Translations under genes and position numbers: made by a program
Part shown: positions 2,421 through 64,000 of the stretch, one piece after another
Numbering within the stretch: position 1 is the stretch's first letter
Layout: each line of letters begins with the position of its first letter
Origin: a virus
Lineage: Duplodnaviria > Caudoviricetes
Virus record (IMG/VR): IMGVR_UViG_3300005973_000002
DNA: 64,000 nt
Direction: 5' to 3' (one strand)
Notes under the pieces: generated by a model
The model's database searches: none
Told to the model about the DNA's origin: nothing
Seen by the model: only the letters and a program-made list of their open reading frames with translations

Positions 2421-5400
2421 TATTTATTTTTCTTATTGGTAGGGCTTATTTCATCTGCATATTGCCTGAGCAAATAAGCGACTCGCTCTATTTCTTCAGC
2501 ATAATTTGAAAGAGCTTCAAAGTCTTCTTCTTTGCTTTTCATCTCTCCAGCAAGAAAAAGTAATTCCTGGATACACTCTGATATGTTATCCACTTCTTTA
2601 AAGAGGCCGTTCTTGACTTCTTTATGGAGGAAGAATTTTGGAATCCACACAAAGGAACCAGTTGCGAGTGTGACTTTTACTCTAGTGTTGCTTTCATCTG
2701 TAACAAGAACAGCTTCGCCAAAATCTGACAAATCAAGACAAATACGTGTTTTATTTTCATGGAAACAGGGAATATCTTTATGTTGCCGCAATGTAAAAAC
2801 ACGTCCTATGAATGGTTTAAGATAAGGTTCATCTCTCTTCTTAGCAGGCATCCTAAATCCCAAAAAAAGCAATCAACAACGTTTGTTGACCATTGCTTAA
2901 ATATCCTGTGTTTTTACTGACAAAGAGGAAAAATTCTAATGCATCCAAAACCAAAAACTTATTTTCGTCTTAAGTGACAACGATTTACACTTGTCAGCTT
3001 GAATATAGATTCTTCTACCTCCCCAATCCATAAGCCACAATTCAAAGTTGTGATAACAGTGTTTATCGAGCAATGTGAGATATCGACCAACCGGCACGAA
3101 TACGTGGTCATTTGACCCAGAATGCAAAAATCCCCAGGCCCAAGCACCATCATCTTTGACTTGGTGAGTTACAAGTCCCAACTTTACGTGGAACCATACC
3201 CAAATTTTAAATAACCACTGTCGCATTATATTAGTTTTCACGCATATCATATTCGGCATTGTCGCACATGGACACACGTGCCTCAACATCAAAATGTGGG
3301 CTATAAATACGACGTCCACGGTACGTGAATTTTTCACGGACTTCATGCTCCATTGCAACCTTGCAAGCCTTCCAAGCTGTTTCTACGATTTCTGTGATAG
3401 TTGAATATGGCGACAAATACCACTTGCGACAATGCTGTGGGATGGGACCAGCCTCAGGATTCTCAACATCGATGTCCATGAAAACCCATTGAAGAAGAAA
3501 CCCGTCCCCCTTTTCCATGAGACGAAGCTCCCAACCCATAAATTGGATATTCTTTAAGATTATCTGAACTTCGTCAATACTCTTTCGTCGTTGAACTATG
3601 CTTGCCTCAAAAAATTTCGCTATAATGGTTGATAATGCTAGCGCCACGCTTGGCAAAATATTGCCGAATTTTAATATAAACCTCAGCGAGGTTATCATTG
3701 GTTGAGTTTAGTCCACCTCTCGAATCCAACCCATCGCTGATTTCAACCCACTCAACCGTAGAATCGTCAGGGTTTGGGATGCATTCTTCAGTGGAATAAA
3801 ATCCAGAAACATAAAGCCTGTCTGAACAGCCCACAACATGAACAATAACCTCTGTCGTGTCATAATCACCACCGGGTTGGGTAGAAGCAACCTTTTTGAC
3901 CTTGCTGATCTTGCTAAGCTCGTCGATAACCTCACTTGTCTTCCAGTAATACACAGTATCTCCTAAGGTATTCTTTAGTTAAGATCCTATTCTTAACAAG
4001 AAAATGCTCAAAATTTAAAGCAGAAGTAAAATAAACACCGTCATTGTAAATGACTCGTACCCAATTTGTAGCACCTAATTCAGATGCGCCAAGGTACATT
4101 ACCCAAGGCTGTCCTTCTATGGTTATGACGTTCGTAAATTTGCTTCTGATCTCACCTAACTTGCCAGGCGATGGTTCTTTAACCAAGGTAAACAATCTAC
4201 CTTGACCCATGTCGCCGAAGTGGCCGGTCATCTGATACAACTTTCCAGGCTTTAGGACATTGGTAATTTCACCAATAACAAAATCATCAATTTTACCAGA
4301 TGAGTGACTCACAGTAATTTACTCACACCAACTTGATGTCATAGATAGACAACTTTCCACCAGCAATTGGGATATCAATCAATTCAGTCTTGTCGGTCTT
4401 AATTCCAAGTGGCAAACGTTCATCTTTATCGGTTGGGATGTGGATTTTATCCTCAAGTGGGTGTTTGGTAACAATCATGGTTTTGTCTCTAGAACCTTGC
4501 ATGTCGTATCCGGCAAACATGCCAAACACATAATAGAAAGGATTCGGCACTGTAACTTTGTATCGAGAATCGTTTTCCCGAGCTTCCTTCCATGAATCGG
4601 CCACGAGCGATTCAAAGAAGTATTTTGGCATATAACGATATAGTCTCTGCCCATTCCATCCGGGACCGACGGGACCACTTGTTACTGTGTGCGGAAACCC
4701 AGGATTGTAACTAGGATCCATTTTCTGGACTTCCTTGAGTTTACGAACCTGCAAAGGCCCCTCGTAGGACAGTTCAGGATCTTCATGTTCAAACTTTACC
4801 CAATACTTCTGACCATAACCATTACGACGCTTAATCATAGCAAGCGTTGCGGGTTCACTGTGATCTTCCTGAGCTTCCGCAGAAATTGAAGTATCGTTGA
4901 CCACAGTGAAGTTTGCATAGTTGAAATCAGCAAGCTTTACCCAGAAACGTCCATAATTGTTTCTGTTTCCTTTGGCTTTAACCAAAGCTTGATCTGTAGT
5001 TTCGATAATTTTGAGCGTTACACTCGAAAATTCCTTAAGGCCCTTTCGAACATAAATGCGATCGACTTCAAGTTTTGTTCCAGCTGGAAGTGTTCTCGAA
5101 TAGGAATCAAGCTCGTTTTGCCAGCTATAACTGGTATTTCGACCATCGGCAAGTGCGACATCACTGTTGCGATGTTCAAGATAAAGCTCGAACGTCCAGT
5201 CTTTTTCGACTTTAAGCTCAGAGCCAAGTTCGGGAATAAATGCCTTCATGTCAAGACTCCAGGTATTTCTCTAGTTCAACCAGAACCTTGTTGGCAATTT
5301 CTTCTGCTGAATCATCTTCAACTTCATCAGCCAACGTAAGCTCATAGAAAACATCATCCCCTCCATGATCAAGGGTGATGTTATACTTTTCCTCAAGAGA

Positions 5401-5588
5401 GGAAACCAGCTTGCCAAATTCTTCTGCGAAGAAGATGTTTTCAGGATGATATTGGTTGCTCACAAGCGACCTTTCCTCGATATCATTCTCATCTTCTTCA
5501 GCAAAAGGATTCCATTCGGTCCACAGGACTCGTAGTTTTAGGTTGTGGGTCTGCATCTTATTCTCCCAATACAATTTTGTCGAACGCT

Positions 5589-6326
5589 TTACTCTTTTTT
5601 GAGGTTGAAGTTGTAGACACAACAGTCAAGTCCAATGGCAACTTCGAGCACCAACAGATCTTTTTCTACAACTTTGTTTTTTGCCTGAAACTTTGCCCTG
5701 ATAGGAAAATCAGTTCGCAGAGAAATCGAACAGACCTCCATCCACTTGTCGCCATTATCAACCTCAACATCCATTGTTTTTTGGCTGTAAGATGGAAGAC
5801 GGTCAGAAACAACAATTCTAGTTGGCAAATGAACCATTTCTGCAATCATTTTTCGAACAGGTTCTAGCACTGCCGAATGATAGTCATTTAGTGTATCTGC
5901 TGTAAAAATGCACTGAAATTCCTGCTGATAAAACTCTTTCAGCCGCATGTTTTTGGTAACCTGGTCCTGTTCCCGTCGAAAACTTTTACCGGTCTGCCAA
6001 ACCACAAAAGGTGGGCGAGTTGGCTTTGAAAGTCCCCGGAGTAGATGGGCTGCGTATGCATACGAACCAGGCGTGGTTTCAGGTCGTAGAACGAGTCCAG
6101 GATTTTCCCCTTCTTGAAACCAAACATCCTCACGTGTATAGTTTGGGTTAATCAGAGTTTCAGGAGTAAGGATGGGAGTTTCAACCTGAAAAAAAGCCCA
6201 GGCCGGATTCATTTCGAGCAATGCCGTCTTTAGTTCAGCCAAAAAGTGTTGCTCAAACACTCTTCGTAGTCTGATTTCACGTTCAGACCAGAAAATAAGA
6301 CCGTTGCTGTTGTACAGGCTATCCAT
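5589..6326 (-). CDS. Stand-alone class II aaRS catalytic core, GlyRS(alpha2)-like, with no anticodon-binding domain
   Basis: Motif 1 region QVETPILTP, LRPETT, motif 2 GKSFRRE, RLKEFYQQEFQ, RLPSYS, WMEVCSISLRTDF. Motif 3 reads GLDC instead of GLDR. Only 245 aa. Confidence 0.8.
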   Translation of the reverse strand: MDSLYNSNGLIFWSEREIRLRRVFEQHFLAELKTALLEMNPAWAFFQVETPILTPETLINPNYTREDVWFQEGENPGLVLRPETTPGSYAYAAHLLRGLSKPTRPPFVVWQTGKSFRREQDQVTKNMRLKEFYQQEFQCIFTADTLNDYHSAVLEPVRKMIAEMVHLPTRIVVSDRLPSYSQKTMDVEVDNGDKWMEVCSISLRTDFPIRAKFQAKNKVVEKDLLVLEVAIGLDCCVYNFNLKKE

Positions 6327-6609: not shown

Positions 6610-6637
6610 AAAAAAAGGACGCCGAAGCGTCCTTTTT
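6610..6637 (-). terminator. Rho-independent terminator after the RNA ligase
   Basis: GGACGC-TTCG-GCGTCC followed by a T-run on the minus strand, with an A/T run on both flanks. Confidence 0.9.
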
Positions 6638-7365
6638 CAGTTGTATTCTGTTCCGCCCTTACGGGTGAGGTAATCACCGCTAACAGACTTTAGCTGAACA
6701 CGGCCAATTTCTTCGCTCCAGCGTTCTACCGTAGGTCGAACAACAACACCCTCACGGATATGCATTTCCTTACCGGAAATAGTCTCGAAGCCGTCAGTGT
6801 ACTCGTACAAAACCTTCTTCGAGAAGGGCCCACGGTAAAGCACCGGAACACGCTGAAGACCAAGTCTCTTGCAAGCCGCATCAAGCTCAGAGTCGTTCAA
6901 ATAACTGCCAGACCCTGGACGTCCAACATAAATATCAAATACTCTAAAACCGATCTCGACGTCCTTGTCGGCAGAACTGCCATAAGAAAGGTCCTGAACA
7001 CCACGTCCAAAAATCTCTCCAAGAACGTAAACCGGCTGTGGATCGAAATCGTGTTTTAGCTGATGACCAAAAGCAAATGAAATACGGTTGTCCATGTTGT
7101 AGTGTCGAGCGACACGCACGTATAGATTCGTCTTGTTGGCTTCGGCATCATACTTCATCGCCAGTCCACGAGCCGAAAGACCCTTGGATGAGATAATGAG
7201 ACGGCCCTCCTCGGGATGGGCATCCCTCGGCGGCATAAGGCCAATCATACACCAGGTGTTATGAACAACAATGCCTTCAGCAATATAGTTGTTGTTGCCA
7301 CCATCAATCTCTAAATCATAGAGATCACTATCACTTTCAACATACTCAATCTTAACACAGCGCAT
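6637..7365 (-). CDS. RNA ligase C-terminal part preceded by a 36-aa C-intein
   Basis: MRCVKIEY...YDLEIDGGNNNYIAEGIVVHN, then T as extein +1 (intein part 7258-7365). Ligase motifs follow: VLGEIFG, FRVFDIY, REGVVVRP, QLKSVS. Confidence 0.88.
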   Translation of the reverse strand: MRCVKIEYVESDSDLYDLEIDGGNNNYIAEGIVVHNTWCMIGLMPPRDAHPEEGRLIISSKGLSARGLAMKYDAEANKTNLYVRVARHYNMDNRISFAFGHQLKHDFDPQPVYVLGEIFGRGVQDLSYGSSADKDVEIGFRVFDIYVGRPGSGSYLNDSELDAACKRLGLQRVPVLYRGPFSKKVLYEYTDGFETISGKEMHIREGVVVRPTVERWSEEIGRVQLKSVSGDYLTRKGGTEYN

Positions 7366-7651
7366 TTTTTACTCTTTCTATCGTTTTTTCTTTTTGATTG
7401 TTCCAATCACTTTCCCAAACAATTAGAACTTTGTACCCTCTTTTGAGCAAGGCGGCGGTGCGCCTTTTATCTCTTTTCCATTGTTGCCCAACAGTCCTGG
7501 AAATCCAAGAGCAATATTCGCTTGGGTCGTGAAATTTTGTTGGATTACAATGGAACATATCTCCATAGAATTCCAAGATAACTTTCTCACTTTTCAACAA
7601 GCCGTCTACGATAAACCCTGATATAATTTCTTCACGATTTGACGCCTGCAT
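7352..7651 (-). CDS. Vsr/DUF559-like (EDxHD-type) endonuclease ORF between the intein halves
   Basis: FIVDG...VILEFYGDMFH...RDKRRTAALLKRGYKVLIVWESDW. Confidence 0.8.
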   Translation of the reverse strand: MQASNREEIISGFIVDGLLKSEKVILEFYGDMFHCNPTKFHDPSEYCSWISRTVGQQWKRDKRRTAALLKRGYKVLIVWESDWNNQKEKTIERVKNALC

Positions 7652-7659
7652 GGGACTTG

Positions 7660-8454
7660 CTACATGATTGGACTTTCAATATCTTCATCAGGCAAAAGTT
7701 TGCCAGCTTCCACCCACATTTGTCGGTCACGTGAATAAACGGGGTGATCCTCGGTTAAGGTGAGAGTAGAACCGTTTTCTAAGGTAAGCTTTACCCATTT
7801 TTTATCTTCACTGTTTAGCCGACGCATGCGACCAGTAATAGGTCGCTCAATATATTCCTTGCTTTGTTCATTATAAGATAAAACCGACTGAATTGTTTTA
7901 TCAGCCACTACTTCTGCGATAGACCGCTCGCTTCCATCTACAAGTCGGACCATACTTGCTTCATGCAAGCATCCATGAAGTTTCTCAGTGAAAACAACCT
8001 CTTCACCTTCCTCAAGAATGTGAGGAAAACGCTTAAAATTTTCGATATCGTACTTCAAGGTACGGTCCTGACCAGCAGCGAACACCTCACCGGAAAGATG
8101 GGCCGGAATTGGAGGCTCCCACTTGGTAATTCCAAGAATATTAGCAACATCAGCACCCTCTTGCCACTCAGGACGTGCAGGATACACAAGTCCCTGTGAA
8201 AGGATGCCACGAAGACGAATGGCCTTTACACGATTCTTTGCCTTTCCGGCAAGCTTACCCTCAAGACCCATTTCACGGAGGAGAGCCTGAGGAACGACAG
8301 CCTGTTCTGGAATGTAGGCAACGAGATCACCGCTCTTAAACTGGTCCTTGCGGACAATTGCTTGGTAATCGCCCACCTGGGCGAGTTCTAAAGCATCAGC
8401 ATTGGGGTGTTCAAGAACAGTAATCCGTTCGACAGTTACAGAAAAAGTTGACAT
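7660..8454 (-). CDS. RNA ligase (DRB0094/Rnl5-like) N-terminal part fused to a 103-aa N-intein
   Basis: The N-terminal OB-like domain (HPNADALELAQVG, IRLRGILSQGL) and motif I TEKLHG are followed by intein blocks CLHEAS (C1 codon 7969-7971) and LTLTEDHPVY; it ends at TAG. Confidence 0.9.
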   Translation of the reverse strand: MSTFSVTVERITVLEHPNADALELAQVGDYQAIVRKDQFKSGDLVAYIPEQAVVPQALLREMGLEGKLAGKAKNRVKAIRLRGILSQGLVYPARPEWQEGADVANILGITKWEPPIPAHLSGEVFAAGQDRTLKYDIENFKRFPHILEEGEEVVFTEKLHGCLHEASMVRLVDGSERSIAEVVADKTIQSVLSYNEQSKEYIERPITGRMRRLNSEDKKWVKLTLENGSTLTLTEDHPVYSRDRQMWVEAGKLLPDEDIESPIM

Positions 8455-29329: not shown

Positions 29330-30097
29330 TCACGGATGGAAAGTTTGCATCTGTAAAGTGCCATAGCCATCTAAACGCTTTTTCATAATTGCTACAGCAT
29401 CTGGGTTTTCATCAACCAATGTTACGTTTCGTCCATGCATAGCCCCCGCCTCGCCAAGAGTGCCTGAACCCGCAAAGAAATCCAAAAGGTGTTCTCCAGG
29501 ATTTGAGTGTACTTTTACTATGCGTTCGATTATAGCCATTGGTTTTTGAGTTGGGTAGCCTAGTCTTTCTTTACCGTTTGTTGGAACGATAGTGTTCCAC
29601 CAAACATCTGTCGGTGTTTTGCCTCGCTTAGCCTTCTCGGCACCAACAAGACCCGGAGCCATATATGGGATGCGATCTATCGCATCGTAGTTATAAGTAT
29701 ATTTTTTCAAGTCTTTTACATACCAAAGAATGTTATCATGTTTACAGGGCCACTTGGTTTTAGGTCTTCCGCCATAATCATACGCCCAAATTATTTCATT
29801 TTTGAACTTTTCTCTACCAAAAATTTTATCACAAAGCACTTTTACATAGTGAATTTCACGGTAATCCATATGAATAAAAAATGAACCATCATCTGTAAGC
29901 AATCTTTTTGCTTCTTCAATTCTTGGCTTTATCCAATCTATAAAATCATCGAATTTATCTTTGTATGAACCATGATGACTTGATTGAACCTTTTTTGTAT
30001 TAAACGGAGGATCTATTACAATTAGATTAAATTTTTTATCAGGCAACGATCGCAATATTGGCAAATTGTCCCCTTGATAAATTTTAATTGTTGGCAT
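29330..30097 (-). CDS. DNA methyltransferase (N6A/N4C, beta class)
   Basis: QGDNL, VIDPPFN, KNEIIWAY, HDNILWY, YPTQKP, LDFFAGSGT. The start at ATG 30097 overlaps the endonuclease stop. Confidence 0.93.
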   Translation of the reverse strand: MPTIKIYQGDNLPILRSLPDKKFNLIVIDPPFNTKKVQSSHHGSYKDKFDDFIDWIKPRIEEAKRLLTDDGSFFIHMDYREIHYVKVLCDKIFGREKFKNEIIWAYDYGGRPKTKWPCKHDNILWYVKDLKKYTYNYDAIDRIPYMAPGLVGAEKAKRGKTPTDVWWNTIVPTNGKERLGYPTQKPMAIIERIVKVHSNPGEHLLDFFAGSGTLGEAGAMHGRNVTLVDENPDAVAIMKKRLDGYGTLQMQTFHP

Positions 30098-30860
30098 ACA
30101 AAAAGTTTCCTTCTTTACTGTTTCTTTTGCCATTGATGATAGCTGAAATTACTGGCTGTGGAATTCCTAATACTTTTGCTGCTTCATATTGGCTTTCAAA
30201 AAATTCGGATGAACCATCGGAACGAATGTAAACTATTCGTCTTTTATTTCGTTTGGGGCTTTGTGCACGAGACATAGCTTTTTCAACATCTTCCATTTTA
30301 TGAACAAAGGTCCAACCTTTAGCATATGTGGCACGACCTTTTAGAACATTTCTAATTGCTTTTTCGTTACAACCAAGAGCTTTTGCTGCTTTTTTTTGTG
30401 CGGCAAATTTTTTTATTTCTTTTGTTTTAACATTTATAGCTATCACTGCTTTACTGCCTGGTCTATTTGCAGCGATTTTTTTACAAGTTTCTAGGGGTAA
30501 CTTCTTACCCAATTTCCTTTTACGCTGCTTTTCCTTTGTTTTTTTAGAAGTCTTTACTCCCTTTCGTCCACCTCGACCACCCTTATCAGAATTAATCATA
30601 TTTAAGTTCGGCCAGAATTGTTGAATGTATTCAAATTCAGCTATGTAAGCCTCGTCTTCAGTTGAGAACTCTTTTATTAATTCTATTGATATACTATCTT
30701 TATATTTTTTAAGCCAATTCAACTTTCTTTTACGTTTTTTATCATAAAAATGTTGTTTTAACCGTTTTTCTAAAGTTTGGCCTGTAACTCCGATATAAAA
30801 TTTAGGACTTTTCGATGAAATGATTTTATAAAGCTTGTGCATATTAATATGTACGCACAT
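30084..30860 (-). mobile_element. Free-standing GIY-YIG homing endonuclease with NUMOD3/NUMOD1-type DNA-binding repeats
   Basis: KLYKI...FYIGVT...RLKQH...EFEYI...MIN, followed by KTSKKTKEKQRKRKLG and two HTH repeats (AAKALG, AAKVLGI). Confidence 0.85.
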
Positions 30861-34022: not shown

Positions 34023-35308
34023 ATTGCGCCACTTTGTCCAAAAAATGTCCAAGCTACATTTTCCCCGGAGAGTTTTGGTTCGCCTTCGTCGAAGGTATTT
34101 CTAATAGGCAACTCATGAACCTCTGCTACAACAGAGCAATGAATGGCTTGTGCATGATCAATAGCTACATCTAGACTATCACAAGGCCCTTGAAAATTTA
34201 AACCTTCGTAAGTATGCTCAAATACAAGGCAAAATAACATTATACCATCTTCAGATGGCAGAAATCTTCTTCTGTCATCCAGCATTCTCTGTCCTTAAAA
34301 AGGACCGTTGCTCCCAAATAATCATTTGGAAAATATATTTTTCCCCACTTGCCATACTTTTGGCCAACATACTTTGGAGAGTTGCAACTGTTTTTGATGG
34401 CCAAAACATACCATATCATTTTGAAAGATCAACAGGAATGCGAACCTTACGGAGATAGTCAGCAATTTGCTGAATGGCGTGTTCAACAACGCCTTCGGAC
34501 GGATTTGTGATCATATCCATCCTGAAGTGTTCTCCTGGGCCCTGAACACCCCAACTGCAAAGCATGAAAACATCATCGTCTTCCATAACGAATGAAATTC
34601 TACCGTGATTGGACTGCGGAAAATCAAATCCTTGATAGTAGACGATCATCTCTCCCTCGCCAATTTCAACATCACTATATTGCCTTGTTTCAGCAACACA
34701 TGAATATGTCCAAGAAAGACCTTGGCGGGCAAGATGTTTACATGCGATACCAATATATTCACATGTTTTATTATGATTCACGTTTTTCTCCAAACAACTG
34801 ATCATAATAAACAAACCCAATGAGTTCTTGTTTATCCTTTTCAAATTTGCCGCAATCCTGTTCCCATTTTTCCTTTAGCTCAATGTAATCTTCGTAAGCT
34901 TTATCTGATCGACCAGTAGGACCATAATGCAAATTTGGGACTTTTCCTTCATTATTATCTTTAAGTTTTTTATTTATAATACCTCTGCCGTTGAAGGGGA
35001 AATAATCTGTATGCAGCCCCATGTGCCCTTGCCATAAAGCATGTGTAGTAATTAAGCGAATTTTATCATCGTCTGTCAGTTTATAGACGTTGTATTTACG
35101 ATACCAGCCAAAATCATATTCTGTATCAATATCATCAGGGTCTTCGGCTACTGATACAAATTCTTCAAGCAAATCAAAATAGCATATTTCATTTTCATGT
35201 AACAAAACTCCACTAAGTGGTCCATCCCAATAATCCAAATGCCAGAGAATTTGCACGTTTTCAAGTTGTTTCATTTTTTTTGCTTTCCAATTTGTTTCAT
35301 CTTTTTAG

Positions 35309-35383
35309 CGAGACCTGTGGGATTTGAACCCACATCACTCCGGGTTAAAGCCGGCCGCATTACCAATTTTCTGCCAAGGTCCC
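35309..35383 (-). tRNA. tRNA with anticodon TTA (ochre-suppressor type; Gln/Glu-like loop)
   Basis: GGGACCT/AGGTCTC acceptor, G73, anticodon stem CCGG/CCGG, loop CT-TTA-AC (anticodon 35346-35348), T arm GTGGG-TTCAAAT-CCCAC. Confidence 0.85.
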
Positions 35384-40818: not shown

Positions 40819-40829
40819 CTATTATTTAT

Positions 40830-41181
40830 TGGACCCGATCGGAATTGAACCGATGTCCTCAAGATCGCCTAAAAAAACTTCTACGTTACCTAGTTTGATT
40901 TTCAGATTACCGGTCCGAGGTATCAGACAACCAACCGGGTTCTTTCATTTGAAATCTTGATCAGACAGCCAATAGAAATCTAACTCTAGTCTAATCCAGT
41001 CCTAATAACGACGCCTTATAGAATGCAAGGACACTCAAGCTATAAGACGGCTCTCATCAAGCAGCGAGAGCAAGAGGTGCATTGTCTGCATTTATAATCG
41101 TTTATTGGATTTAAGTGGTTCTAAACACCCACCGTAACGCCATTTTTTCTTCTTACCCCAAGTCGAAACCAGTACGGGCCC
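40830..41181 (-). ncRNA. ssrA: tmRNA (352 nt), tag peptide ADNAPLALAA
   Basis: 5' GGGCCCGTACTGGTTTCGAC; acceptor with G3.U70; ATAAAT then GCA GAC AAT GCA CCT CTT GCT CTC GCT GCT TGA (41057-41089); 3' GGAC-ATCGG-TTCAATT-CCGAT-CGGGTCC-A. Confidence 0.95.
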
Positions 41182-51325: not shown

Positions 51326-51757
51326 TTAGTCGTAGGTGCGCCCAATGGTTAAATGAGACTTCCAATTGCTTGGAATACCAAACTCATCACGGATTTTCCT
51401 TACCATCGGGCAATCAACTTCAACAATCCAAAAGTAAGGCTTTTTAGCCTGACGCACTTCATGACTATAGCTGAATTCTACCTTTTGTCCGTCATACTTC
51501 TTCCACAGGTGGACCAAGTGCTTTCTAGGCTTTTCACCACGAATAATAGAAATATGCGCATCCCATGCAGGTTGCTTGAGATCAATCATATAACGACGCC
51601 AAACCCACCAGCGGTAATACCTGGTAATTTCACGATCAACTATGATGATTGCCCACCAATCCGTACGCCTCTTCATCCCTGGTCGAGGCGGGTCATACTT
51701 AATAATTCCAGTGCTGGTGTGCCACATGATACCCTCCTCACTAAATGACATTGACAC
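51326..51757 (-). CDS. 2H phosphoesterase family protein
   Basis: Two HxS/T motifs: DAHISII and SHLTIG. Confidence 0.75.
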   Translation of the reverse strand: MSMSFSEEGIMWHTSTGIIKYDPPRPGMKRRTDWWAIIIVDREITRYYRWWVWRRYMIDLKQPAWDAHISIIRGEKPRKHLVHLWKKYDGQKVEFSYSHEVRQAKKPYFWIVEVDCPMVRKIRDEFGIPSNWKSHLTIGRTYD

Positions 51758-52288: not shown

Positions 52289-54196
52289 CTACACCGGATA
52301 CTCTCGTATTTGAATAGATTTTGGCCACTCGACAGGATCATCACCTTTTTTACTGTTCAACTTCGACATGGTCAAGCCTGTCAATATCGGCTTAGAACCG
52401 AGCTGTTTTACAAATACTTTAGTTGATGTACCATTGACGCATTTCACCACGTTGTCTGCCCAAATCCAATCAAAAGCTCGGGCTCCTGAACCGCTTTCCC
52501 CGCCCACAACAATCCAATCAAGGTCATTGACCCAAGGAGAAAAGTCAACGGGTGCTAAGGCTGGTTCGTAACTTGCCCAGCGTACTTTTGAAGTAGTTCT
52601 CAACAGAATTGGGATTCTTTTATCTGCTGTTGACTGGTCTTCACAAGACACTCCGAGCCAAACATTGTTCAGCGGCCACGTTTTGTCAACTTTATCAGTT
52701 TCTTTTCGACCGGTAAGCTTTCTAGCCTCATTGGCACAATATTCAGCTGGTGATGGGACTTGCAAGGCAACCCAATCAAACCAATCCTTTGCTCTTTCTG
52801 GTCTTTTTGTTAATACCTGAAAGGTATGCTTTTGTGCAGCTGCCATTACGCCAAAGACAGCAGCAATGTATTCATTAGCGACGCCATGATGAAAGAGATC
52901 ACTCATTGAATTAACGAACACCATTCTTGGCTTAGTCCAACGAATGGGGTCTGCAAGCTTGTCTGGTACAAGCATAATATTGCCATTCCACCTTGGACCC
53001 TTTTTGCCGACGGCAATTAACCCATGGTAAGGCTCTCCAGGCCCAGAAAACCTATGTGCGACCGTTTCCGCATAGCAATTATGCACAGCCATTCCTAATG
53101 CTATGAATGTACCAGAGGTGGTTTGTATATCTACCAAATTGCGTTTACCAATTCGTCTAATCCCATCAAATTTTATTGATTGTTTTGATGGAAATCTTCG
53201 TCCATGAAAGTCAACCGTCTTTCTTTGTAATGCAGGTTGAATTGTAGATAAAAATTGAATTTTATCAGAAATGGTTCCCAGGAGTATTTCACTTTTGTTT
53301 ACTTGCGTAGAATATTGTTCATATTTGGATTTAAATCCCAAATCAGCAATTGCACGATGAGCAATGTTCAATAAATTGTTTTCTTTGGTCTGATTAAATC
53401 TTAGATTTTTGCCACTATAACATCCATCCATATCCAAAAAACCAGCAAGAAACCCAGCTTTCCAATTAAAGTCACTTTCTTCCCGTATTATAATATTCCT
53501 AATTTTTAGGAGATTGTCCATAATCCGAGTTTCAATTTTCAACATGGGAAGGTTGGCTTCCCTGTAAAGAAATGCATCACCTCCATTAAAGGAGCGAATA
53601 TTAATATTTTTACAGCCAAATTCGATCAATGCTTTTTTTAAGCGTTCAAGAATTGGTTTATCTGTTGCCAAAACTGCCACACGACAATAAGATTGAAGAG
53701 TGCCATTTTTCCCAGAACCTTCAATTCTAATTGTGTCGTCGCCACCAACAACTCCAGCAATATATCCTGCCAAATAGGGTTTAGAATTTATATCTGGCAA
53801 CCACTTTGGAAACCCAATACTAGATATTTTTGTGTTTAAATTAATCTTTTCAGCTTTTCTCCAATATGGTCTATGTGGAGATAAAAACAAATGGTCAACA
53901 CTTGATACTATCGTATTAGAACCAAAATATAATTCTACCGCTTCTTTCCTGGTTTTCCAAGTTTTAACAACCGTAGCCTCTTCAAAAACTCTATTTTGTC
54001 CAACTTTAGGATTGTCAGTAAAAGCAATAACTTTATCACCCTCTTTAATCTCGCCAATAGGCACCCAACTCATATCGGACATTAAAACAGGCGTATCTGG
54101 GCCCAGGCAATTTTCGCAACCCTTGGAAACTCTAGAACAGCCTCTCAAAGGATTCCATGTGGCATCAGTCCACTGTATTCCGGTCTTGTTTCCCAT
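52289..54196 (-). CDS. Gp37/Gp68 (DUF5131, radical-SAM-like) protein containing an intein
   Basis: Exteins IQWTDATWNPLRGCSRVSKGCEN and CYAE..., FVNSMSDLFH, HTFQVLTKRPER, NVWLGVS, SYEPAL, WIVVGGESG, FVKQLG; the mature protein is 291 aa. Confidence 0.92.
   Translation of the reverse strand: MGNKTGIQWTDATWNPLRGCSRVSKGCENCLGPDTPVLMSDMSWVPIGEIKEGDKVIAFTDNPKVGQNRVFEEATVVKTWKTRKEAVELYFGSNTIVSSVDHLFLSPHRPYWRKAEKINLNTKISSIGFPKWLPDINSKPYLAGYIAGVVGGDDTIRIEGSGKNGTLQSYCRVAVLATDKPILERLKKALIEFGCKNINIRSFNGGDAFLYREANLPMLKIETRIMDNLLKIRNIIIREESDFNWKAGFLAGFLDMDGCYSGKNLRFNQTKENNLLNIAHRAIADLGFKSKYEQYSTQVNKSEILLGTISDKIQFLSTIQPALQRKTVDFHGRRFPSKQSIKFDGIRRIGKRNLVDIQTTSGTFIALGMAVHNCYAETVAHRFSGPGEPYHGLIAVGKKGPRWNGNIMLVPDKLADPIRWTKPRMVFVNSMSDLFHHGVANEYIAAVFGVMAAAQKHTFQVLTKRPERAKDWFDWVALQVPSPAEYCANEARKLTGRKETDKVDKTWPLNNVWLGVSCEDQSTADKRIPILLRTTSKVRWASYEPALAPVDFSPWVNDLDWIVVGGESGSGARAFDWIWADNVVKCVNGTSTKVFVKQLGSKPILTGLTMSKLNSKKGDDPVEWPKSIQIREYPV
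53078..54109 (-). mobile_element. Intein (344 aa) with a LAGLIDADG homing endonuclease domain
   Basis: Starts CLGPDTPVLM, has VSSVDHLFL and ends LVDIQTTSGTFIALGMAVHN, with Cys at +1. Endonuclease motifs are YIAGVVGGDD and FLAGFLDMDG. Confidence 0.92.
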
Positions 54197-54980: not shown

Positions 54981-55733
54981 CTAGGCACTTGTGCTGAATT
55001 GTTTGAGTTCATTTCTTCTCTCCATTTTGTTTAAAATATAAGGTGTCCAACCTCTATATGTGTTACGTTTATTATTTGCCACTTGATTCATCTTTGAAAG
55101 ATGTAAGTTATTTTCTCTGCAAAATTTCGATAAATTTGTAATTGAAACTATTTCTCCATCAGGAGAAACAATCTTATAAGATTTTTGATTTGATTTGATT
55201 GCTGCCAAGTTGGTAACTTTAGATGGTCTTTTGCCCCTATTTGCATTTTTTATTTTTTTTACATGTTCTTTTGATAGACTTCTTCCGGATAGTGCTTTAG
55301 ATATATTGTTTTTATGTTGTTCTGATAGTAATCGACCTTTGAGTGAAGAAGAAATTTTTCTTTTAGTTTCCTCTGATACAACAGTTTTTCTTGAATTAAA
55401 ACTTCCTTCACGTGAAATGGCTTTTTGTCGTAAATTATAGCATTTTTTTCCGGAATCAAAAAATTTATCTAAATATCGCTGTTCTATTTCCAATCTCTTG
55501 TTCAAATCATTCACTTCTTGAAGAACTTCGAAAATAAAAAATTCTGATCCACATTTAGAAAAATCAGATTGAAGAAATCGATTGCCATGCTTCCCCAAAA
55601 GAAGAGCATGTTTATGTTTATAGGCTCTTGTTTTAAAAGATTTACAAGAACCATAATAAACTCTATGGTTCTTACGGTTAAAAATTCTATAAACCCCACC
55701 TTTATTGGAACAACCGTTATATATTAACTTCAT
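54981..55733 (-). mobile_element. Free-standing GIY-YIG homing endonuclease with NUMOD3 repeats
   Basis: GVYRI...VYYGS...R...H...EQRYLD...YN, followed by SEETKRKIS, SEQHKNNIS and SKEHVKKI. Confidence 0.87.
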
Positions 55734-55769: not shown

Positions 55770-56210
55770 CTATTCAATATTTATCCGCTTTAATTCAGCT
55801 CTGCGCTCCATGAGTAAAATTCCTAACCAATTCTTACCCTGACCTGTCTTATTGTCTACTCCCCAAAATTGATCATGCCACGTATTTCCCTCAATCAAAA
55901 TGGCTGGTTCGGTAGCAATTAGCATTTCGGCAAAAATCGATCCTTCGGCAAACTTAAGTCTAAGTCCCTCTCTCATCACATGTATTTTTACAGATTCCCA
56001 ATCCTTGCGCAAATCTAGAGATTTTCCAGCTCGCTTTGCAGCTCCTGGGGATTTAAGAGAGGCAATGCGCTTTCTTTCGCTGTGTGAGTTTGTCTTCATT
56101 GCTTGATAAAAGTGCTCATTTGTTGCATAGACAATTCCATCATGAATGAAGGGGCTTTCATAGAAATTTGAAAGAAAGCTAAAGTCATCAGTAAAACTGT
56201 CGATTTTCAT
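55770..56210 (-). CDS. NADAR (YbiA-like) family hydrolase
   Basis: FLSNFY, EHFYQAMK, AKRAG, DWESVK, IEGNTWHDQFWG, GKNWLGILLM. Confidence 0.93.
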   Translation of the reverse strand: MKIDSFTDDFSFLSNFYESPFIHDGIVYATNEHFYQAMKTNSHSERKRIASLKSPGAAKRAGKSLDLRKDWESVKIHVMREGLRLKFAEGSIFAEMLIATEPAILIEGNTWHDQFWGVDNKTGQGKNWLGILLMERRAELKRINIE

Positions 56211-56530
56211 CTGACATTTGCCCTTCGTGTCTTATTCCGACGCCTTTTTTGTTTTGAAACCCAGGTTGTAAAGTTTACAACTTTTGGATGTGTCATTAAA
56301 AGCTCTAGCGTATTGTATTCTTTGCCAAGATCCTTTTCGGTAATAAAGTCGTGAAGTGCTTCGTGGCAATCTTCACATATGTCTACACCACGATTCAACT
56401 CTTCCTTTGAGTACCTTTTCTGATACCATTTCTTAGAATGAAGAGTTCGTGGAATCAGGTGATGAAAAGTAAGACATGTCTCTTCACGAGAACACATCGG
56501 ACAAGTTCCAATTTTATTGATTGTTACCAT
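56207..56530 (-). CDS. HNH-family nuclease-like protein
   Basis: CPMC...TFHHLIP...ICEDCHEALH. Confidence 0.75.
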   Translation of the reverse strand: MVTINKIGTCPMCSREETCLTFHHLIPRTLHSKKWYQKRYSKEELNRGVDICEDCHEALHDFITEKDLGKEYNTLELLMTHPKVVNFTTWVSKQKRRRNKTRRANVR

Positions 56531-56806
56531 TGTTTTGATATAGAGATTCTATTCTATAAGAGGCAATTTTCATCCCAGAATGTTCAACCAACCTCATAAA
56601 GATATGCAATGCATGGTTTTCATTTTCAGCATCGATTACAGCTTCGTGTGATTCTTCAGCACCTTTTGTATGTTGATCCTGTTTTACTGCCCACCGATTT
56701 GAAATGTCAGTAAGTGGCCTAAAAATAATTTTATACTTCATCTTATCCCAAAGCGCCAAACGGCATTTTTAATAACTACATTCGAACCTGTCTTTAGCTA
56801 TTTTAG

Positions 56807-56926
56807 CTCCAGAGGAGGGATTCGAACCCCCGACTAATCAGCTATCTTTGAAACCATCGGATTCGCATTGCAACAAGCTTTATCCGATTCCCACAACCGA
56901 TCGCTCTACCATTGAGCTACTCTAGA
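56807..56926 (-). tRNA. tRNA-Asn-type body with a 48-nt insertion in the anticodon loop
   Basis: TCTAGAG/CTCTGGA, G73, GCTC/GAGC D arm, ATCGG/CTGAT stem, GGGGG-TTCGAAT-CCCTC. The loop is 55 nt instead of 7. Confidence 0.82.
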
Positions 56927-57045
56927 ACGACCAGAATCAGCAGACCTGTGGAGTCTCCAATGACCTGGCCTAGTCGCATTCCTCAGTCCACAATAAAGGT
57001 CTGCGAGTAGATTTTTACTTTAGAAAGAACAGACGCAAATGTTTG

Positions 57046-58452
57046 CTATAAACATGGATTAACAATAATATCTTCAAGTCTTTCAACCATAACCGCTGGG
57101 TCTGTAGAAATTAGATGAAAGGTAGCACAATCATCAAAATCTGTGTTGTTAACTGATGCCCCAAAGACTGTCAATGATTCTCCGTGCGTAAACGAATTAC
57201 ACATTTCCATTTCACGTACTTCTGACAAACCTCTTGTAGAACTTCTATATGTTTGCCCTCTTTCATCAGTAAACATTATCATAATGCGAATTGAACCTTC
57301 CCGCCAAGATAAACCTCTTCTGGTGGGTGAGAGCATATCAGCTATACCATCACCATTTGAATCAATACCGTGTTCAATTTCACCAGTTGCGCTTTCATAA
57401 ACTGCATCCCAAGTTGGCTCCTGTGCACCACCATCAGCATCCAAACTAGATAGCCTACTATTAAAGCTAGTGAAATCAGAAAAATCAAGTTCTACAAATG
57501 CTCTTCTGTCTAATGCGCCTCGGCCAGAAATAAGAACCAATGCAAACCTAAATTCGGGATTTCCTGCATACAGTGCTGAAAAAGTTGTTGTTGCTTCACG
57601 AACAGCTGCAATTGTAGAAGACATTGAACCAGAAATATCGATCAAATAAAGAATGTCAAAACCATTTGGTTCTATTGTTATACACACCCCATCTTCATAA
57701 GCACCATCAATGCATCCATCACAATCATCGTCGACCCTATTACAGGCAAGCAAACCAACTTCTGGCACCGGCGGAATTTCACCATCGCATTCAGACCAAG
57801 TTCCTCCGGTTTCACAAACTTGACGTCCTTTTCGACAAGGTGAGATAATCGAATCTATATTAGGCCCAGAATAGCACCATTGTGATAAAGGCCCTGTGGA
57901 ATCACTATTTTCATCTACCTCACCATCACAATCATTGTCAATGTCATCACAATCTTCTGGAACGCAATTTAAAAAAGTACAAGAGCCTTCAATGCATGCA
58001 AATCCTCTTGGACACATATCATCAAATTCACAAATATCTACACAATAGCCATTGCCTGTAATGGAATCAGTGATACATTCTTGCTCACCAGAACTTTCTT
58101 CATTGTTGCAGTCTTGAGTATTTTCGCATTCAGTAAAACGATCTGATCTGACGCAAGAACCCATACGGCAGTCTGCACCTTCACCACATGGTGGCCCGTT
58201 ACCACATCTGCAAGAGCCATCTATGCATTGGTCAGAATCCATAATCGGACAAAAATTTCCACAACCCCCGCAATTTCTGAAATCAGTTCTTAGTCTAGCA
58301 AGATCATCACTTTCACACGGGGGTCCAGCATCCGTGTCTGTTATAGACATCAATCCAGAATCAGAGAGTGGCGGTATTAGTGGTATTCCTTCTTGGTTGG
58401 AACACGCAAACAAACCAATGCAAAACACACTTAAAACCGCTACTTTTTTCAT
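57046..58452 (-). CDS. Lipoprotein with myxobacterial-type Cys-rich repeats and a C-terminal vWA domain
   Basis: Lipobox GLFAC; NCGGCGNFC; EDCDDIDNDCDGEVDE and CNRVDDDCDGCID repeats; MIDAS LIDISGSMS; FTDERG. Confidence 0.85.
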   Translation of the reverse strand: MKKVAVLSVFCIGLFACSNQEGIPLIPPLSDSGLMSITDTDAGPPCESDDLARLRTDFRNCGGCGNFCPIMDSDQCIDGSCRCGNGPPCGEGADCRMGSCVRSDRFTECENTQDCNNEESSGEQECITDSITGNGYCVDICEFDDMCPRGFACIEGSCTFLNCVPEDCDDIDNDCDGEVDENSDSTGPLSQWCYSGPNIDSIISPCRKGRQVCETGGTWSECDGEIPPVPEVGLLACNRVDDDCDGCIDGAYEDGVCITIEPNGFDILYLIDISGSMSSTIAAVREATTTFSALYAGNPEFRFALVLISGRGALDRRAFVELDFSDFTSFNSRLSSLDADGGAQEPTWDAVYESATGEIEHGIDSNGDGIADMLSPTRRGLSWREGSIRIMIMFTDERGQTYRSSTRGLSEVREMEMCNSFTHGESLTVFGASVNNTDFDDCATFHLISTDPAVMVERLEDIIVNPCL

Positions 58453-59471: not shown

Positions 59472-59552
59472 ACAAAGAACTCGGATTCGAACCGAGAATA
59501 CCTTTACAGGCGGCGCAAGTTGCGAAGTGTATACCATTTCCACCATTCTTTG
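59472..59552 (-). tRNA. Type II tRNA-like RNA with a collapsed anticodon arm
   Basis: Perfect CAAAGAA/TTCTTTG acceptor, GGTGGAAATGGTATACAC D region, GCCT-GTAA-AGGT variable arm, CTCGG-TTCGAAT-CCGAG. The anticodon arm is only CGCA-ACT-TGCG. Confidence 0.7.
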
Positions 59553-60609: not shown

Positions 60610-60681
60610 TGGGTTGCCTGGGATTCAAACCCAGAACCAACATTTTAAGAGACTGTTGCACTACCATTGTAGTGACCACCC
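60610..60681 (-). pseudogene. Degenerate tRNA-Lys(CTT)
   Basis: Loop CT-CTT-AA; T-loop TTTGAAT (C56 lost); C at position 8; mismatches in the acceptor and anticodon stems. Confidence 0.65.
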
Positions 60682-60920: not shown

Positions 60921-60991
60921 TTGACCCTGGGATTCGAACCCTCAGTCTCCCGATGTTATGTCGGGCGTTCTACCGTTGAACTAAACGGGTC
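60921..60991 (-). pseudogene. Degenerate tRNA with a non-canonical anticodon loop and a deletion in the T/acceptor 3' strand
   Basis: GTTC/GAAC D arm, CCCGA-CATAACA-TCGGG, GAGGG-TTCGAAT-CCC then AGGGTC (about 5 nt missing). Confidence 0.65.
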
Positions 60992-63884: not shown

Positions 63885-64000
63885 TTAGAAATGGACAGGA
63901 AACGGAATAGCATCGTGCACTTTTTCAAGCTTTGCCGCAAACATTACAAGTCGTTCAATGCCAAGTCCAAATCCAGCATGGGGCACAGTACCCCATCGAC
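63885..64000 (-). CDS. asnS: Asparaginyl-tRNA synthetase, C-terminal 37 residues (gene starts beyond the window)
   Basis: [37 protein letters not shown] is the AsnRS-type motif 3. Confidence 0.85.

Follow-up and report, generated by a model that had tools for sequence, protein, structure and literature searches.

A tRNA-Asn gene of a megaphage apparently split in its anticodon by a divergent relative of a recurring tRNA-shaped insert family

Background

Short inserts that are not ribozymes, located in the anticodon loops of tRNA genes, were described as 'enigmatic' in the text on the Lak megaphages (Devoto et al. 2019, PMC6784885). That text reports them in the Thr, Phe, Gly, and Tyr tRNAs, the junctions having been predicted by tRNAscan in its eukaryotic settings; one of the introns 'itself may encode a tRNA' (PMC6784885, Fig. 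4), and the mechanism was not known there. In the full-text literature, the Lak introns (PMC6784885) were the only short phage tRNA introns that we found, and no description of the architecture or mechanism of such inserts was found.

In the present study, we analyzed a 64,000-nt stretch of DNA (hereafter, the window) from a megaphage of hypersaline-lake metagenomes, whose contigs reach up to 461 kb. The host is bacterial, judging from the tmRNA, sigma-70, and the G-1 encoded on tRNA-His. One tRNA gene of the window carries a 48-nt insert in the anticodon loop. An earlier note on this locus, whose central observation was confirmed here, together with an Asn-type body, GUU as one of its three possible anticodons, and an RNA ligase, had also ascribed to the phage an AsnRS, whose gene in fact runs off the end of the window, and a 2H phosphoesterase, which reaches a sub-threshold score only. 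It had missed that the insert seems to belong to a recurring family of inserts resembling a tRNA top half, and that the copy in the window is apparently degenerate.

The Lak introns and this family have in common that they are short, non-ribozyme inserts that interrupt the anticodon loop in tRNA genes carried by huge phages. The passages of the Lak report used here, a comparison made by the paper's text alone, give no acceptor/T-arm architecture, tail rule, or link to a ligase. In a review of 2014, only group I and group II introns were recorded in bacterial tRNA genes, and a group I intron depends for catalysis on a core of at least about 100 nt with some ten helices (PMC4033280). The group I introns in tRNA-Leu(UAA), fMet, Ile, and Arg genes of bacteria, plastids, and phages (PMC4033280) also split a bacterial-type anticodon loop, and they resemble the insert of the window in having a 5' exon that ends in U; they can be mobile. 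Unlike them, the insert of the window is 48 nt long, has no Rfam match, and takes the shape of a tRNA minihelix.

Archaeal and eukaryal tRNA introns (EndA or Sen with RtcB or Trl1) would be alike in being short and in that proteins excise them and a ligase reseals the exon halves, which stay paired. The insert of the window, however, is without a bulge-helix-bulge and is located at 35/36, not at 37/38, and the ends expected from its removal would be 3'-OH and 5'-phosphate, in contrast to the cyclic phosphate and 5'-OH of archaeal and eukaryal splicing. A further parallel is offered by tRNA-like punctuation and mascRNA, in which RNase P and RNase Z free a tRNA-like element from a longer RNA. 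There, as in the present family, an embedded tRNA-shaped element would set its own cut sites by means of tRNA-end enzymes; the flanks are not rejoined there, whereas the family would need both rejoining and a 3' cut after a 4-nt tail.

Methods

In the first search pattern for relatives, the D and T arms were fixed and an oversized middle was required. The second pattern was GGTAGAGC-N6-YTGT-N40-70-TAR-N13-GGTTCRA. A group I intron was defined by a P3-P9 core detectable by Rfam and a length of roughly 200 nt or more, and a bulge-helix-bulge by two 3-nt bulges on opposite strands, with a 4-bp helix between them and a splice site in each. The controls for the ligase comparison were 14 records retrieved for tRNA arrays with an intact tRNA-Asn.

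Results

The interrupted tRNA gene is 120 nt long and lies at 56807..56926 on the minus strand (Rfam RF00005, ARAGORN -i, and comparison of trailers). The RF00005 match spans 56926..56807 (-) and scores 50.5 bits, well above the gathering score of 29 (E 7e-8 in the whole window); it covers model positions 1-71, with 51 residues inserted in the anticodon loop. By direct reading of 56926..56807, all four arms are intact: the acceptor stem UCUAGAG/CUCUGGA with the discriminator G, the D arm GCUC-AAUGGUA-GAGC, the anticodon stem AUCGG/CUGAU, and, after the variable loop UAGUC, the T arm GGGGG-UUCGAAU-CCCUC. The anticodon loop has 55 nt (7 + 48). The 5' exon (56893..56926, -) comprises tRNA positions 1-35 and ends in U32 U33 G34 U35, by direct reading with the junction fixed by the relatives and the alignment to the covariance model (CM). 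The 3' exon (56807..56844, -) starts with U36 A37 G38, followed by the 3' strand of the anticodon stem, the variable loop, the T arm, the acceptor 3' strand, and G73 (Rfam alignment and direct reading). Behind it stands the trailer CTAA, the same as behind many tRNAs of the phage.

The last 28 nt, from part of the variable loop through G73, are identical to those of canonical phage tRNA-Asn(GTT) genes (L001 and L002, IMG/VR), and the D and T arms are near-identical to those of the phage's own Asn gene (L013:1169-1242). The body is of the Asn type, as the earlier note had read it. The tRNA region is identical in seven independent contigs of the phage population from different assemblies; the interrupted sequence is therefore real and not an assembly error, and for the same reason the population offers no variation to read. 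No match was obtained by blastn of the locus against GenBank phages.

Around the gene, neither a promoter nor a terminator was found on its strand. The vWA gene is separated from the tRNA by a 119-nt leader (56927-57045, -) that contains two long hairpins (-32.5 kcal/mol, z -1.6), and no sigma-70-like promoter was found on that strand. The relatives of the vWA protein were limited to one remote locus.

The insert (i1-i48; 56845..56892, -) is placed between anticodon nucleotides 35 and 36 by direct reading, the relatives, and the CM alignment, so that the gene reads UUGU|G...A|UAG across it. Junctions yielding GUU, GAU, or GUG are all arithmetically possible, as had been pointed out; comparison with the relatives supports the one after U35 (TTGT+TAG = GUU). 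Only the exact loss of 56892-56845 would produce the outcome seen in all relatives, a 7-nt loop with GUU, which here would read UU-GUU-AG; the gene is therefore most probably Asn and not His. The predicted spliced loop has U32 and G38, in contrast to C32 and A38 in all relatives and in the intact copies of the phage. In the fold of the precursor, U32 and G38 extend the exon helix, and the pairs U33-A37, G34-U36, and U35-A(i48) extend the anticodon stem. Default ARAGORN made no call at the gene.

The hairpin AUCGGAU/AUCCGAU with GGGA/UUUC below forms the minimum-free-energy fold (z -2.3), which agrees with the structure first noticed in the 55-nt loop. An Rfam scan of 56700-57050 at E values up to 1 gave no ribozyme or intron family (group I, hammerhead, twister, or the rest); the assertion that 48 nt is too short for a ribozyme intron thus held.

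The first search pattern gave 120 matches, among which were two metagenomic tRNA-Asn genes (L127:1768-1896 and L081:4084-4210). In both, the loop has the form CUGU|insert|UAA, the insert at 35/36 being 54 nt long in L127 and 52 nt long in L081, and ARAGORN calls both genes Asn(gtt) with an intron at 35. Both inserts start with GGGA and end in RAAGG; that of the window reads GGGA...AAAGA, so that RAAGR is shared. Each gene is part of a phage-like tRNA array and has an intact tRNA-Asn as its neighbour. Between these two genes and the window gene, the differences in the acceptor and anticodon stems are compensatory, and the outer tRNAs are therefore under selection. The two relatives from microbial mats are present on short contigs only, which end at the tRNA. 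Patterns with exact termini (TGTGGGA...RAAGRTAR) gave zero or only chance matches in IMG/VR and the species genomes, and a search for endonuclease-bearing inserts of ~460 nt in tRNA-Asn returned only neighbouring intact tRNAs.

With the second pattern, 57 loci with a good anticodon stem were obtained in IMG/VR, 34 of which passed strict criteria and represented 13 distinct inserts; three phage-like MAG contigs also qualify as members. In the two metagenomic arrays and the 34 IMG/VR phage loci, inserts of 43-68 nt are located between nucleotides 35 and 36 of tRNA-Asn(GUU), a position that was fixed by the search pattern itself for the retrieved members. The first base of the insert is G in 33 of the 34 strict members, the base before it is always U35, and removal of the insert always leaves a perfect 7-nt anticodon loop. 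As a negative control, the archaeal matches of this pattern were ordinary tRNA-Tyr genes with bulge-helix-bulge introns.

A register search gave one layout for all well-formed inserts. At position 1, an unpaired G stands opposite an A, and a 6-bp acceptor-like helix comes next. The connector behind it varies, frequently contains AAAGG or GUAGG, and leads to a T-arm-like hairpin with a 5-bp, G-C-closed stem and a 7-nt loop (UUCGAUU, UGCAAAU, or UGCAACU), which abuts the 3' strand of the first helix without a gap. A 4-nt tail then follows in all well-formed members. In L285 and L317, the first helix is 7/7 paired and the tail is UCCA. This layout is that of the acceptor/T-arm half of a tRNA. In a 17-sequence alignment (A4), 77.9% of the cells were paired, as compared with 50% in shuffles, and the covariation score was 0.746 versus 0.203 in shuffles (0 of 500 reached it); when the partners were slid by 1-3 columns, the covariation fell to 0.09-0.28. 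Both helices are thus supported by covariation. The invariant columns correspond to the tRNA T-arm positions G53, U54, C56, A58, and C61, and the closing G-C pair of the T stem is invariant in 17/17 members.

The same insert design follows directly after U35 in a tRNA-Lys (L265) and in a tRNA-Gln and a tRNA-Glu (L285). ARAGORN labels genes with this design variously as His, Ile, Thr, Glu, and Pro. On L285, a phage-like MAG contig, the Gln, Glu, and Asn tRNAs (1629-1755, 5084-5221, and 5512-5635) are all split after U35, and the three mini-tRNA inserts all end in UCCA. ARAGORN takes the Gln gene of this contig for Glu, the Glu gene for Gln, and the Asn gene for His. Two of the inserts, those in Asn and Gln, have a common acceptor sequence (GAUGAUA/UAUCAUC), which suggests spread of the insert between tRNA genes. 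Two complete intron-bearing phage records gave no match to a simple pattern for intact tRNA-Asn, a weak hint that the interrupted gene may be their only tRNA-Asn copy.

Anticodon-loop inserts of 27-60 nt with unrelated sequences were also observed in IMG/VR (L015, L016, L019, and L022) and in metagenomes (L085, L111, and L119), some of them at 37/38 in Thr(UGU/CGU)-like genes; oversized anticodon loops are therefore common in tRNA genes of uncultured phages and metagenomes.

The insert of the window shares with the family the 35/36 position, the first G, the 6-bp helix in register, and an A followed by a 4-nt tail. The unpaired i1 is G (56892, -). The acceptor-like helix consists of i2-i7, GGAAUC (56886..56891, -), and i38-i43, GGUUUC (56850..56855, -); it is 6/6 paired in the fixed register of the family, which 68 of 20000 shuffles (0.34%) reach, and its 3' strand is also placed by the CM alignment. 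At the 3' end (56845..56849, -), the A opposite i1 is followed by the tail AAGA, which occupies the place of N73 and CCA in a tRNA. The heptamer UGCGAAU (i26-i32; 56861..56867, -), placed by the CM alignment, fits the family T-loop U-[U/G]-C-R-A-N-N and recurs unchanged as the T loop of the tRNA-Lys intron (L265:3315-3363). When the inserts alone were aligned, the window copy gave z of 3.4-3.9 versus shuffles with L127, L081, and the Lys insert of L265.

The T stem expected around this heptamer does not form. In the CM alignment, three of its five pairs are non-standard; four of five can be paired only if the stem is shifted by one base, and the loop is then not T-loop-like. The would-be 3' strand of the T stem instead pairs perfectly with i5-i11, giving the 7-bp rod AUCGGAU (i5-i11)/AUCCGAU (i31-i37) with a 19-nt loop (56856..56888, -) in both the minimum-free-energy and centroid folds. 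The rod overlaps and competes with the acceptor-like helix.

A covariance model across relatives, which had been proposed as a check, was built from the family (R1). While the helices of the family covary and the insert is the top match of R1 in the 64-kb window, where the model aligns over its full length in the family's register, its score is 15.1 bits (E 0.37 in the window and 0.0011 in the 181-nt gene region) versus 38-61 bits for good members; the shortfall lies in the T stem. Because ordinary tRNA 3' halves score 16-19 bits with R1, this score alone is weak. The insert is therefore classed here as a divergent, partly degenerate relative of the family and not as a typical member.

The RNA ligase that the earlier note ascribed to the phage is present in the window at 6637..8454 (-), an ATP-dependent enzyme of the Naegleria/Rnl5 type and a candidate for sealing the tRNA (PF09414, PHA02142 OB fold, Hint, and Intein_splicing). 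Its N-terminal half matches the RNA ligase of Naegleria gruberi (PDB 5COT, E 3e-15). Right after motif I (KLHG), the gene is interrupted by an intein, the central part of which contains several stops, so that the gene reads as two ORFs. The first comprises the N-extein and N-intein, and the second, with its own Met, the C-intein and C-extein, and the two ligase fragments span 8454-7660 and about 7276-6637; either the intein is naturally split or the gene may be broken.

A PF09414 RNA ligase is encoded in 10/10 intron-bearing IMG/VR records (97-490 kb), as compared with 4/14 controls (one-sided Fisher p about 5e-4), in a small sample in which genome size confounds and the records are possibly related to each other. 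Among the complete controls above 100 kb, 0/4 have PF09414.

The neighbourhood of the interrupted gene is rich in translation genes and in GIY-YIG, HNH, and LAGLIDADG genes. The window contains a tmRNA and five or six further tRNAs besides the interrupted gene, and a tRNA array of about 30 genes follows beyond its end; among these are two intact copies of tRNA-Asn(GUU) and two tRNA-His genes that encode G-1. The tmRNA (40827-41181, -; Rfam 127 bits) encodes the tag peptide ADNAPLALAA. A tRNA with the anticodon UUA at 35308-35383 (-), which ARAGORN calls 'tRNA-Stop' (Rfam 54.4 bits), would read the UAA stop; the ORFs of this genome look normal under code 11. The in-window class II synthetase (3-1412, -) is LysRS-like, at 450 bits to the lysine--tRNA ligase model and just under the cut-off. 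A true AsnRS, the enzyme that the earlier note had ascribed to the phage, is encoded at 63885-65135 (L004:3318-4568; NCBIfam asparagine--tRNA ligase, 421.6 bits, cut-off 414), so that only its 3' end (63885..64000, -) falls within the window. An AsnB-type asparagine synthase lies a few kilobases past it, just beyond the window (L010:5323-6906). The 2H phosphoesterase is a sub-threshold match; the region concerned (51326-51757) reaches only 22 bits against a cut-off of 27.

A 635-aa DUF5131 protein (52289-54196, -) has a central LAGLIDADG-like segment, probably another intein. With this gene, two GIY-YIG genes (54981-55733 and 30084-30860), and an HNH gene (56207-56530), the stretch is dense in selfish elements. 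Small HNH-like ORFs lie downstream of the interrupted tRNA in both the window and L081; a conserved HNH gene next to the tRNA was rejected, as the two show 25% similarity over 61 residues with sub-threshold Pfam scores. Three weak or odd tRNA-like genes are present at 59472-59552, 60610-60681, and 60923-60990 (-), two of which are Rfam tRNA matches at 30 and 27 bits; one, of 81 nt, is Ser(act) by ARAGORN or Gly(tcc) with a 3-nt insert. A 138-nt tRNA-like gene beyond the window (L010:4500-4637, about window 73681-73818, -) has a structured expansion of ~67 nt between its D and T arms (fold z -3.4). This gene and the one at 59472-59552 were considered as carriers of the same insert type and rejected, since their architecture differs from that of the Asn insert.

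Discussion

The best reading of the insert is that of a protein- or RNP-dependent intron. Taken together, the comparisons make it somewhat probable that a tRNA-Asn(GUU) is split between U35 and U36 by a divergent insert resembling the top half of a tRNA, which is cut out by tRNA-end enzymes, and that the tRNA is then religated. The insert would be excised by enzymes that recognize the ends of tRNAs. Bacterial RNase P favours an acceptor/T-arm stack that has U at -1 and G at +1. It would therefore be the natural candidate enzyme for cutting between U35 and the G of the insert, which would leave a 3'-OH on U35. The second cut would fall after the 4-nt tail, at the equivalent of position 76. This is the weakest step of the proposal; we know of no enzyme that cuts exactly past a 4-nt tail and leaves the downstream RNA intact. 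The halves of the tRNA, held together by the acceptor and anticodon stems, could then be joined by the phage 3'-OH/5'-phosphate RNA ligase, and with RNase P-type cuts no end-healing enzyme would be needed.

As a wider and more tentative proposal, which we consider possible but doubtful, phages may use a third route of tRNA splicing, in which the tRNA-end enzymes of the cell, with RNase P acting at the 5' junction, cut the intron at its own +1 and 3' ends and a phage 3'-OH/5'-phosphate RNA ligase rejoins the exons; the window copy, without its T stem, would then indicate that the first G, the helix, and the tail are the minimal splice signals. To our knowledge, the excision of such inserts would be a kind of tRNA splicing that has never been shown in bacteria or their viruses.

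The strongest rival, although we think it unlikely, is that the insert once worked, lost its T stem, and is no longer spliced, so that the gene is a decaying pseudogene, transcribed or silent. As the phage has two intact tRNA-Asn(GUU) genes in the same genome, the interrupted copy is dispensable. The degenerate T stem, the score of 15 bits against 38-61 for the members, the unusual U32 and G38 in place of the C32 and A38 found elsewhere, and the presence of other odd tRNA-like genes in the tRNA array of the same phage are all in keeping with decay. However, the outer tRNA has no stem defect at 50.5 bits, the acceptor-like helix keeps all six pairs in register, the termini G...AAAGA are retained, and the trailer is the one used for the other tRNAs of the phage. 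What stands in for the lost T stem is, moreover, a perfect 7-bp helix and not random sequence.

It is rather improbable that the gene product works unspliced as a tRNA-like RNA, be it a decoy, a nuclease-resistant store against host anticodon nucleases, or a ligand of the phage AsnRS. The long anticodon arm would bury G34-U35 in a helix through the three pairs found in the precursor fold, and all interrupted tRNA species of the family (Asn, Gln, Glu, and Lys) have U35. Known anticodon nucleases (colicin E5, PrrC, and zymocin-type toxins) target these classes. The family inserts, however, run exactly from a tRNA-like +1 to a tail like that at position 76, UCCA in L285 and L317, and the loop left by their removal is always a perfect 7-nt anticodon loop, both of which argue for excision.

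It is very improbable that the gene is a tRNA-His(GUG) whose intron occupies the canonical 37/38 site, even though ARAGORN -i called tRNA-His(gtg) i(38,48) and the protein-spliced introns of archaea and eukaryotes usually lie at 37/38 (PMC4033280). The gene has U1-A72, G73, and U at -1; it thus lacks G-1 and has the discriminator G, unlike the two real tRNA-His genes of the phage, and its body matches tRNA-Asn. The closest relatives read CUGU|...|UAA and are called Asn i(35) by the same program. The bulge-helix-bulge seen in archaeal tRNA-Tyr introns from the same scan (CAGCCG/CGGCUG) is also missing; a bulge-helix-bulge intron was rejected because, in the folds, both junctions face each other across one helix end and the bulges are on the 3' strand only.

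A small self-cleaving or self-splicing ribozyme, for which nothing speaks beyond the conserved structure, can be practically dismissed, as the scan gave no Rfam family in 56700-57050 at E up to 1, 48 nt is far below any self-splicing core, and what is conserved in the family corresponds to a tRNA T arm (G53, U54, C56, A58, and C61). A group I intron in particular was rejected by the lack of an Rfam core at E up to 1 and the 48-nt length.

Conclusions

As tRNA finders mislabel or miss such genes, analyses of phage tRNA repertoires and codon usage are biased. The copy in the window, a natural variant that is either 'minimal' or broken, may help to establish which features are needed. With a covarying, tRNA-like family and the association with a ligase in all ten intron-bearing records, the 'enigmatic' phage introns (PMC6784885) may now be given a testable mechanism.
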